Assembly (NCBI GenBank): GCA_002402995.1
Contig: DHGX01000003.1
Coordinates: forward strand, 3,765 to 67,764
Source of the DNA: Patescibacteria group bacterium UBA4787
GTDB lineage: Bacteria > Patescibacteriota > Patescibacteriia > UBA2591 > UBA4787
DNA: 64,000 bases
Reading direction: 5' to 3'
Of this stretch, positions 44,858 to 44,998 are shown one piece after another. How positions within the stretch are numbered: position 1 is the first letter of the stretch; every line of letters begins with the position of its first letter. Position numbers and translations under genes: made by a program. The notes beneath the pieces are model-generated. The model saw only the letters and a list, made by a program, of their open reading frames with translations. It had not been told where the DNA came from and ran no database searches.

Positions 44858-44998
44858 CCCCGTAATACAACTTCGATGGGGACGATCATAATCGGCCCAG
44901 AAAAACCATGGAGAATTTTGTTGGTTAGATTTATAAACATAAATAATGTTTACTAAGACTCAAAAAGTTATTAAAAATATTGAAGATGATATACGGGG
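44858..44998 (+). mobile_element. GIY-YIG family-1 element, ORF-less internally deleted derivative (empty ends only), flanked by TATG
   Basis: Same left (ATGCCCCGTAATACAACTTC) and right (GAAGATGATATACGGGGTATG) termini as 22706-23019. Interior collinear with the 3' end of the GIY-YIG gene. Right end abuts the ATG (45001) of the GT2 gene. Confidence 0.6.

Follow-up and report, generated by a model that had tools for sequence, protein, structure and literature searches.

We analysed a 64-kb stretch of a Patescibacteria genome (the window) around a 141-bp segment that precedes a family-2 glycosyltransferase (GT2) gene. The features of the locus, from 5′ to 3′, are as follows.

44793-44819 (+): intrinsic terminator-like hairpin of the upstream 672-aa gene, kept in two orthologous loci (L099, L100)
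44838-44846 (+): extended -10-like box TGcTAATAT, read from sequence, 8 nt 5′ of the left ATG and kept in the empty-site orthologues
44854-44857 (+): left copy of the target-site duplication, TATG, the same as 44999-45002; the empty sites have one CATG
44858-44998 (+): family-1 gene-less element (copy 2), 141 bp, with exact termini, missing from the orthologous loci L099 and L100
44858-44877 (+): left arm of the terminal helix, CCCCGTA-ATA-CAACTTC-GAT, with pairing across 71 distinct end pairs
44979-44998 (+): right arm of the terminal helix, ATT-GAAGATG-ATA-TACGGGG, with G.T pairing at position 18 in copy 2
44999-45002 (+): right copy of the target-site duplication, TATG, whose ATG (45000-45002) is the GT2 start codon
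45000-45743 (+): GT2 gene (Pfam PF00535, E = 1.8e-23), whose start codon is the target

The true start is 45000-45002, since GT2 orthologues (91-94% amino-acid identity) use this same ATG and their alignments run from residue 1. The public gene call is a 265-aa ORF from ATG 44946, inside the element, and is 18 residues too long; the contig of that record breaks inside the element. Exact-protein look-ups returned no record for GT2 (247 aa), YmdB (264 aa) or the intact nuclease homologue P0001 (see below).

Since the upstream gene ends in a terminator-like hairpin, transcription of GT2 should start between 44820 and 45000. A strict two-hexamer sigma-70 scan found no full promoter match upstream of copy 2, and the short interval 5′ of the element offers a sole putative promoter element, the TGCTAATAT box located 8 nt from the left ATG. 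As it is the only candidate, copy 2 and GT2 are probably co-transcribed. The GT2 site has no Shine-Dalgarno (SD)-like motif.

Insertion of a gene-less element on the GT2 start codon

The left 17-mer of the element, CCCCGTAATACAACTTC, occurs exactly at 22706 and 44858 on the forward strand and at 49621 on the reverse strand; the right 17-mer, GAAGATGATATACGGGG, occurs exactly at 23003-23019 and 44982-44998 (+) and at 49385-49369 (-). Neither has a further match with up to three mismatches in the 64-kb window. The chance expectation is 0.1 (left) and 0.2 (right) matches, and none of 100 shuffles reached three. The 141-bp spacing of the motifs given in the preliminary description agrees with these coordinates and matches. 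Besides copy 2, the window holds the following related elements.

22706-23019 (+): family-1 copy 1, 314 bp, with a GIY-YIG ORF and TATG/TATG flanks; its right ATG (23021) is the start of ymdB
49369-49621 (-): family-1 copy 3, 253 bp, similar to copy 2 (86% identical) and carrying a nested family-2 element
49431-49540 (+): family-2 element, 110 bp, nested in copy 3, with perfect 14-bp inverted ends CCCCGTTAGAGATT and TTTA/TTTA flanks

A metagenome scan with the GT2 protein gave two close relatives of the locus, L099 and L100, whose GT2 proteins are 94% and 91% identical to that of the window. Both keep the upstream 672-aa gene, the terminator hairpin and the TGCTAA(T/C)AT box. After the box they continue as ...agaacatcATGatcgatttagag, with one uninterrupted ...CATG start codon and no element; the junction in the window reads ...gggatatTATG[141 bp]TATGattgatttagag. 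Because the related loci are uninterrupted and element-free, the element at GT2 is an insertion with a 4-bp duplication (TATG-element-TATG). Copy 2 is thus a true insertion of a small gene-less mobile element, exactly on the GT2 start codon. It had been suggested beforehand that the right-hand TATG provides the ATG of the downstream gene, and this is borne out at GT2 by the orthologues and at copy 1 by the YmdB Pfam profile, which begins at residue 4 of the ORF from ATG 23021. The (T)ATG coincidence is most simply explained by the 4-bp duplication of a TATG target, without the element supplying any of that sequence.

The same loci bear on the idea that the segment is a native cis-regulatory RNA, forming a structured 5′ leader for GT2 and ymdB, with no mobile element involved. 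It does sit between a -10-like box and a start codon, and its fold is strongly favoured (z = -4.2 as RNA and -4.4 as DNA, relative to shuffles). However, its absence from the orthologous loci contradicts this reading, as do the duplicated flanks, unrelated neighbour genes, stop codons, occurrence on both strands and lack of an Rfam match, and we give it almost no credence. In the Rfam search, tRNAs alone passed the gathering thresholds and E-value mode gave noise around the element, with no RNA family, ribozyme or riboswitch.

Copy 2 is small (<~300 bp) and non-coding, and has terminal inverted repeats, a target-site duplication and an empty site. The seven residues MPRNTTS, encoded by its left arm, are its only match to the GIY-YIG protein. 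Its ends are common to 306-315-bp copies whose sole gene encodes a GIY-YIG nuclease and not a recognised transposase. Copy 2 therefore has every structural attribute of a miniature inverted-repeat element (MITE), save that the partner gene is no known transposase.

In the preliminary description the interior of copy 2 was taken to be collinear with the 3′ end of the GIY-YIG gene, and the element to be a non-autonomous deletion derivative. The collinearity did not survive alignment: the interiors of copies 2 and 1 give a local alignment score of 18 against a shuffle mean of 16.9 (sd 2.3), and 670 of 2000 shuffles score as high. The shared words ctaaga and aaaaag are chance matches in A-rich sequence, and the two copies have their termini alone in common. 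On this shuffle test we rejected the idea that remains of the GIY-YIG gene make up the interior. The relatives of the interior lie elsewhere: it is 86% identical to copy 3 once the nested element is removed, and 91%, 88% and 83% identical to gene-less copies of related groundwater genomes (L073, L049 and L093, respectively). In its own, related genome the 91% identical copy occupies another gene's start codon. Across different genomes, the interiors of gene-less copies of this size class (127-164 nt) are unrelated to one another and to the GIY-YIG ORF, so a deletion derivative is not demonstrated; the part that these copies share is the terminal helix. MITEs of many transposon families do arise by internal deletion, and such an origin from a GIY-YIG-bearing copy would account for the identical termini. 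We nevertheless hold it to be very unlikely for copy 2, in view of the missing similarity to the ORF or its 3′ end, the interior common instead to gene-less copies in other genomes and the mutually unrelated interiors of the class. What stands of the earlier claim is a gene-less member with identical termini that arrived by insertion; copy 2 appears to be a non-autonomous partner of the GIY-YIG copies and not a demonstrable deletion derivative.

The flanks of copy 3 (TACG and TTTG) no longer form a duplication. Its orthologue without the nested insert (L049; the flank matches 49335-49368) has TTTG/TTTG flanks, as does a similar 134-bp copy with the same right flank as copy 3 (L093). A single TTTA (TAAA) stands at the family-2 insertion point in copy 2, L049 and L093, which makes all three empty sites for the nested element. 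At 41013-41122, the ORF of a CCA-adding enzyme contains a sister family-2 element, which contributes 38 residues in frame.

Distribution, terminal helix and target sites of the family

We surveyed the family by scanning one genome per species for the left 17-mer, which gave 97 loci. Nearly all belong to Patescibacteria (Kerfeld-, Sacchari-, Azam-, Doudna-, Portnoy-, Yanofsky- and Roizmanbacteria and unclassified Parcubacteria); a handful of lone left-17-mer matches in other phyla are chance-like. In 77 cases, the window included, the right end GAAG(A/T)TGATATACGGGG follows 62-315 nt downstream, and we count these as complete elements. They fall into size classes of about 62-80, 127-164 and 306-315 nt, with a few intermediates that result from nesting. 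All seven copies of 306-315 bp encode a GIY-YIG protein of 93-101 aa, and no other size class codes; the lengths of the gene-less 127-164-nt class are not multiples of three. Members of the short class resemble two small hairpins closed by the terminal helix, and the hairpin sequences differ by genome. In the genome VMFS01, which has 11 short copies, the exact 17-mer recovered no ORF copy. Elements also occur nested, as family 2 in copy 3 and family 1 inside family 2 (L015), and in tandem (L035, L089). Where no right end lies near a left end, the cause is mostly truncation at a contig end or a chance match outside Patescibacteria; in three patescibacterial loci (L006, L032, L064) the left end is present and no right end was detected. 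No other cargo follows the left end at any of the 97 loci, GIY-YIG is the only protein enclosed, and no longer composite bearing a transposase was found within 8 kb of the left ends without a nearby right end. Full-text literature searches (GIY-YIG with duplication, MITE or Patescibacteria) returned no description of the element among the papers that they covered.

The ends are imperfect inverted repeats which, on a single strand, can form a 20-position helix with arms of 17-20 nt. When the 28 terminal nt of one side were set against those of the other in 71 distinct end pairs, complementarity was found at positions 1-7 and 11-17. Positions 8-10 essentially never pair; they read A.A/T.T/A.A in 69-70 of the 71 pairs and leave an invariant 3x3 internal loop that gives the element polarity. 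A hammerhead or kink-turn was considered for this loop and dropped on sequence, the consensus cores being absent. Position 13 is an A-T pair in 51 end pairs and A.A in the other 20 (about 28%), copy 2 among the latter. Positions 18-20 are paired in 94-100% of cases, against about 50% with partners shuffled, and each uses three or four pair types (CTTCGCT/AGCGAAG, CTTCCAG/CTGGAAG, CTTCGAC/GTCGAAG, CTTCGGC/GCCGAAG); no in-register pairing extends past position 20. ORF-bearing copies keep the helix extension, including a double change from CCAG/CTGG to CCCG/CGGG. This covariation shows, at the level of the sequences compared, that the terminal helix is under selection. G.T and A.C mismatches are both rare in the helix, and do not tell a DNA strand from an RNA strand. 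Because positions 18-20 covary freely beside an invariant non-complementary loop, what matters would be the folded single strand or an extruded cruciform, which argues for recognition of a folded strand and not of two identical duplex binding sites.

Identical 4-mers flank 59 of the 77 complete elements. The empty sites reconstructed from them have the consensus 5′-YNNR (position 1: T48/C7/A2/G0; position 4: G33/A24/C0/T0), and their position matrix carries information in those 4 bp alone. Targets other than TATG have a symmetric preference (T...A), the pattern expected if a pair of nicks, both 5′ of a pyrimidine, fell 4 bp from each other. TATG is used near-exclusively in the Kerfeldbacteria genome and the symmetric T..A preference prevails elsewhere, which suggests that sub-lineages differ in target use.

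A preference for (T)ATG at gene starts had been proposed from the window, and across the family the insertions show a matching bias. Of 27 insertions at TATG/CATA, taken from many genomes, 24 coincide with the start codon of an ORF that is 80 aa or longer and preceded by few open codons; 22 of these are co-oriented with the gene, and the remaining three of the 27 are tandem to another element. Were any non-coding TATG tolerated, about 31% would be expected on start codons (25 TATGs at predicted starts and 56 elsewhere in non-coding DNA; binomial p about 6e-10), a baseline that is taken from this one window and set against copies that are non-independent within one genome. The bias could reflect, partly or wholly, purifying selection rather than targeting. 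Duplications that contain TAA or TGA fall exactly on the stop codon of the upstream gene in 5 of about 30 cases, and the rest are intergenic. SD-like motifs accompany 2 of 38 insertion sites, and a TAnnnT box lies 4-11 nt upstream in 21 of the 38. We rejected the missing Shine-Dalgarno as a special trait of insertion sites, since such motifs are rare throughout the window (3 of 39 genes; 22 of the 39 start with TATG). The insertion sites look like typical gene starts of these organisms and not like a special subclass.

The GIY-YIG nuclease and a proposed mechanism

The frame-corrected protein of copy 1 matches Pfam PF01541 (E = 3e-14) as its sole domain, while NCBIfam gave sub-threshold matches alone (TIGR01453, 23-26 bits against a cutoff of 56). 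Its 602 homologues are about 70% identical, and wherever the source name includes a taxon, that taxon is patescibacterial. About two thirds of the best 120 of these 602 are at least 99 aa long. Among 12 longer homologues that we fetched, 11 contain MP[SRG]NT[TI]S, nine of them at residue 1. This motif is the translation of ATG plus CCCCGTAATACAACTTC; with the arm-encoded motif at residue 1, the ORF must be read from the ATG of the flank and not from one of the element. Accordingly, an ATG adjoins all seven ORF-bearing copies, and in most copies the protein begins at the duplicated host ATG (MP[SR]NTTSS...). At the other end most homologues finish in ...G[AT]G[SR]*, with the stop codon within the right arm. 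The coding sequence thereby overlaps both arms in every ORF copy.

The family is tight: amino-acid identity of about 70% and an identical 17-mer extend from Kerfeld- to Roizmanbacteria (seven lineages), as expected of a mobile element that spreads horizontally. When 1.84 billion representatives were searched with a profile, 3 clusters passed E <= 1e-30 and 1978 passed E <= 1e-10; the nuclease is a tight clade in a broad halo of small GIY-YIG proteins. Among solved structures, UPF0213 BH0048 and SLX1 come closest to it in sequence and fold, with I-TevI and UvrC behind them. The sequence match to 1zg2 has E = 1e-5; the top Foldseek matches of the structure model, which is of moderate confidence (pLDDT 70.8), are 1zg2 and Slx1, none at E <= 0.001.

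Relative to P0001, the intact 101-aa homologue that is 93% identical, the ORF of copy 1 has a 2-nt insertion, and is either a pseudogene or an assembly error. The two GIY-YIG genes of the window are both frameshifted, in the regions 22750-22790 and 42490-42510. Copy 2 may therefore be currently immobile, barring assembly errors at the frameshifts or an intact gene in another part of the genome.

We infer from the exclusive association of ORF and ends that the nuclease is the mobilising enzyme. On balance, we think it probable that 44858-44998 is a non-autonomous member of a patescibacterial family of hairpin-ended insertions served in trans by this nuclease. The mechanism that we propose starts from the observed insertion and duplication, target rule, helix covariation, ORF association and start-codon bias. 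The nuclease would recognise the folded terminal helix, as a single-stranded or cruciform substrate, and would make the cleavages in trans for gene-less copies such as copy 2. Integration duplicates 4 bp of a 5′-YNNR-3′ target, the outcome expected of a pair of nicks with a 4-bp stagger. Enzymes of the GIY-YIG type are hydrolytic, and we know of none that acts as a transposase or has strand-transfer activity; the joining activity must therefore come from elsewhere, and host repair or ligation may finish the joining. At GT2, one TATG now stands before the element and the other keeps its ATG with the gene, so that the coding sequence is left untouched.

Transcription from the upstream -10 box would carry the left ATG, from which a peptide of 33 codons would be translated in copy 2, and the nuclease in ORF copies. 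The 20-position stem stops 1 nt before the GT2 ATG, and in ORF copies the TGA of the nuclease lies 10 nt before the host ATG. The host ATG might then be reached by re-initiation or by processing of the hairpin. The TATG target itself, with no SD-like motif and a -10-like box 8 nt upstream, would suit a leaderless mRNA. We also considered translational bypassing from one ATG to the other but discarded it, as the 101-aa proteins need normal decoding of the left arm.

The main competitor to mobilisation by the nuclease is an ordinary MITE moved in trans by an unseen DDE-type transposase (e.g. IS5-like), with GIY-YIG a passenger of one sub-lineage. Short inverted ends with a duplication of fixed length are the hallmark of DDE transposition, IS5-like elements also give 4-bp duplications at Y..R targets, and the want of a known strand-transfer activity among GIY-YIG enzymes has to be weighed together with the scope of our transposase search, which covered the element loci alone. 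Yet none of the 97 loci has a transposase between its ends, the GIY-YIG ORF overlaps both arms in every ORF copy, and the arm motif is carried by 11 of the 12 longer homologues fetched. The covarying positions 18-20, the loop that breaks the symmetry of the ends, and a target middle that is W-W or variable and not the TA of the YTAR of IS5 also speak against a DDE enzyme. We regard this reading as unlikely, while giving it real weight.

Mobilisation by the nuclease may extend to a more general proposal, which we advance tentatively and put somewhat short of an even chance. The elements would form a new class of prokaryotic transposon, in which a sole SLX1/UPF0213-like GIY-YIG nuclease of ~95 aa acts on a 20-position hairpin or cruciform and the target is cut with a 4-bp stagger. 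Some sub-lineages would be specialised for start codons of genes without SD motifs, where the duplicated ATG lets the element borrow the transcription and translation start of the host and leaves the host ORF intact. There is a substantial chance that the elements represent a new transposition mechanism. If the nuclease moves them, transposition chemistry would extend beyond DDE, HUH, serine or tyrosine recombinase and Cas1 enzymes, many proteins annotated 'GIY-YIG nuclease family protein' in Patescibacteria would gain a function, and units of GIY-YIG gene and hairpin would have direct evidence of mobility, an idea raised, but not shown, for Ssn/NTS.

The elements also have practical consequences. 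They break metagenome-assembled genomes, with many copies at contig ends, and mislead gene callers, as in the public GT2 protein that starts inside the element. Landing on a start codon and re-creating the ATG is an unusually gentle form of parasitism in a genome with almost no spare non-coding DNA, and raises the question of how translation initiates right after a 20-position stem where Shine-Dalgarno sequences are rarely used.

Comparison with known systems

Several families of small repeats share part of this architecture. Rickettsia palindromic elements (about 100-150 bp) have no known transposase and can sit in frame in genes, much as the family-2 element at 41013-41122 does; their sequences are unrelated, and to our knowledge they neither carry a nuclease gene nor favour start codons. 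The Correia/NEMIS elements of Neisseria have 26-bp ends and a TA duplication, are often co-transcribed with the adjacent gene and form an RNA hairpin from their ends, and typical MITEs are paired with a DDE transposase. The present elements resemble this type in their gene-less 60-160 bp, inverted ends and target duplication, but the duplication is 4 bp (YNNR) and the sole partner gene encodes a GIY-YIG nuclease. With IS200/IS605 and REP/RAYT they have in common imperfect hairpins of the kind recognised in single-stranded DNA by a small nuclease, whose gene lies between or next to them, and the proliferation of gene-less repeats. Those systems, however, depend on HUH (Y1) tyrosine transposases, leave the target unduplicated and integrate 3′ of a tetra- or pentanucleotide of fixed sequence on one side only, whereas a GIY-YIG nuclease and a sequence-variable 4-bp duplication are found here, and the defining features of the HUH systems are absent. 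Elements of the IS5 family hold a DDE transposase between their ends and duplicate 4 bp of YTAR. The length and the Y..R pattern fit; the middle is not TA (TATG, TTGA, TAAA, TCAA, TTTG), and the 97 loci lack a transposase.

Among GIY-YIG enzymes, homing endonucleases of the I-TevI type join the nuclease to a DNA-binding domain and home to one cognate intron-less or endonuclease-less allele. The present protein is of another type, with no second domain (93-101 aa) and many unrelated genes adjoined. SLX1 is a structure-specific nuclease that cuts branched DNA and needs SLX4. It and UPF0213 (YhbQ/YazA/BH0048) are the best sequence and fold matches, and the cutting of branched DNA fits a hairpin or cruciform substrate; unlike the nuclease described here, they are host repair enzymes, neither embedded in repeats nor multicopy.

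The closest described system is Ssn/SRM. Patescibacteria are often called naturally competent, and a patescibacterial version of this system would make the hairpins sites of a host-domesticated ssDNA nuclease that modulates recombination or DNA uptake. Spread would then be a by-product, and copy 2 a nuclease site beside GT2 and not a selfish element. Ssn (cd10448) is a single-domain GIY-YIG protein of ~94 aa that cuts ssDNA beside its own hairpin repeat; it cleaves site-specifically, adjacent to the hairpin, and spares dsDNA and RNA (Chenal et al., 2025; PMC11893778). The repeats have an orientation and mostly lie between genes, and the Ssn repeat brackets its own gene, an arrangement (NTS-ssnA-NTS) that the authors liken to an insertion sequence (PMC11893778). 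That paper does not mention target duplications (0 occurrences of 'duplication') or Patescibacteria. The likeness lies in a stand-alone GIY-YIG protein of similar size (93-101 aa here, about 94 aa in Ssn) tied to its own dispersed hairpin. As a stand-in for SsnA we used an SRM-flanked homologue from a Rhizobium plasmid, to which the nuclease is 36% identical over the 69-residue catalytic core only; the C-terminal half is different, and the best solved relatives are UPF0213 and SLX1. The SRM motif (HGTCWY..YYVSBRH..WNVSBRG..RNCYNB) has 0 matches in the 64-kb window, while both SRMs were found around the Rhizobium control. Set against the nesting, tandem copies and cross-phylum identity, which together with the duplications and empty sites are signs of active mobility, we consider the domesticated version decidedly unlikely, although domestication and mobility are not mutually exclusive. 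The two systems also differ in layout, as the ssn gene lies between two separate hairpins of 20-50 nt, whereas the present gene lies within a single hairpin formed from the two ends of an element whose mobility is recorded in a 4-bp duplication and an empty site.

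Gene calls and neighbours of copy 2

Public calls for GT2 (window 44946-45743), the family-2 glycosyltransferase gene, start at ATG 44946, which lies within the gene-less family-1 copy 2, and thus carry 18 extra N-terminal residues derived from the element (MFTKTQKVIKNIEDDIRG). The one Logan contig shown with this long GT2 call (L098) begins 30 nt 5' of ATG 44946. Since its first nucleotide falls inside the element, we suggest that the repeat broke the assembly. The gene upstream of copy 2 is:

42767-44785: 672-aa gene, weak HTH_11 match only

It has a G+C content of 52-55% (rest of the region 31-44%) and looks horizontally acquired. 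The gene and its terminator are conserved in L099 and L100, the relatives with an empty site at the GT2 start codon.

Tandem family-1 copies and a second GIY-YIG element

Family-1 elements also occur as head-to-tail tandems, or adjoin variants with a CCCAGTAATAC left end, at L035, L089, L001/L007/L051 and L025/L069. Between tandem elements there is one common TATG or TAAA. Each insertion restores a target at either end of the element, and sites therefore stay open to repeated hits. Many family-1 copies lie at contig ends and hence fragment the MAG assemblies.

A second, different GIY-YIG element is present in the window:

42392-42683, + strand: GIY-YIG ORF within a perfect 21-bp inverted repeat

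The arms are AACCCCTCACTTGAAAAAGAT and ATCTTTTTCAAGTGAGGGGTT; the ORF runs from ATG 42413 to TGA 42675-42677, the latter within the right arm, and is about 50-55% identical to P0001, the intact 101-aa GIY-YIG homologue. The element sits directly 3' of the stop codon of the preceding gene, with no obvious target duplication. Both GIY-YIG genes of the window are frameshifted, this one close to the A-run around 42500 and that of copy 1 by a 2-nt insertion (caaagccttTCaaagac) at 22750-22790 relative to intact homologues. Either the two genes are true pseudogenes or the assembly contains homopolymer-type errors at these points.

Translation starts and repeats in very large genes

SD-like motifs are rare upstream of the 39 long ORFs of the whole window (3/39), T precedes the start codon (TATG) at 22 of the 39 predicted starts, and an A/T-rich or TAnnnT box is often found a few nucleotides upstream. 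Together these features suggest that initiation in the UBA4787 organism is largely SD-independent, possibly leaderless.

At 3867-14907 there are several long direct repeats that have diverged to 62-83% identity, lie about 3.7-4.6 kb apart and have shorter repeats inside them. They point to tandem duplication of segments within very large genes, with ORFs of 2482 and 1460 aa.

Family-2 elements

A separate element family, with ends CCCCGTTAGA..., recurs in the window and at other Patescibacteria loci (L015, L046, L061, L064, L065, L073):

29267-29376, + strand: family-2 element
41013-41122, + strand: family-2 element inside ORF 40742-42388

Families 1 and 2 have in common the outermost CCCCGT/ACGGGG as well as the YNNR target rule; the ends of family 2, however, are perfectly complementary. 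Duplications of 4 bp (TTTA, TCAA, TGAA) flank copies in the window, L015 and L046; those at L061, L064, L065 and L073 are imperfect or absent. At L015 the family-2 element hosts a nested family-1 element.

ORF 40742-42388 is CCA-adding-enzyme/poly(A)-polymerase-like. The 110 bp at 41013-41122 plus the TTTA duplication make a 114-bp insert that is stop-free and in frame, adding 38 residues (TPLEIQSRYSPW...KSLTGF) after FGVFKF and before TPRGFGGEMIEIAMPRTE. The arrangement is reminiscent of the in-frame palindromic elements of Rickettsia.
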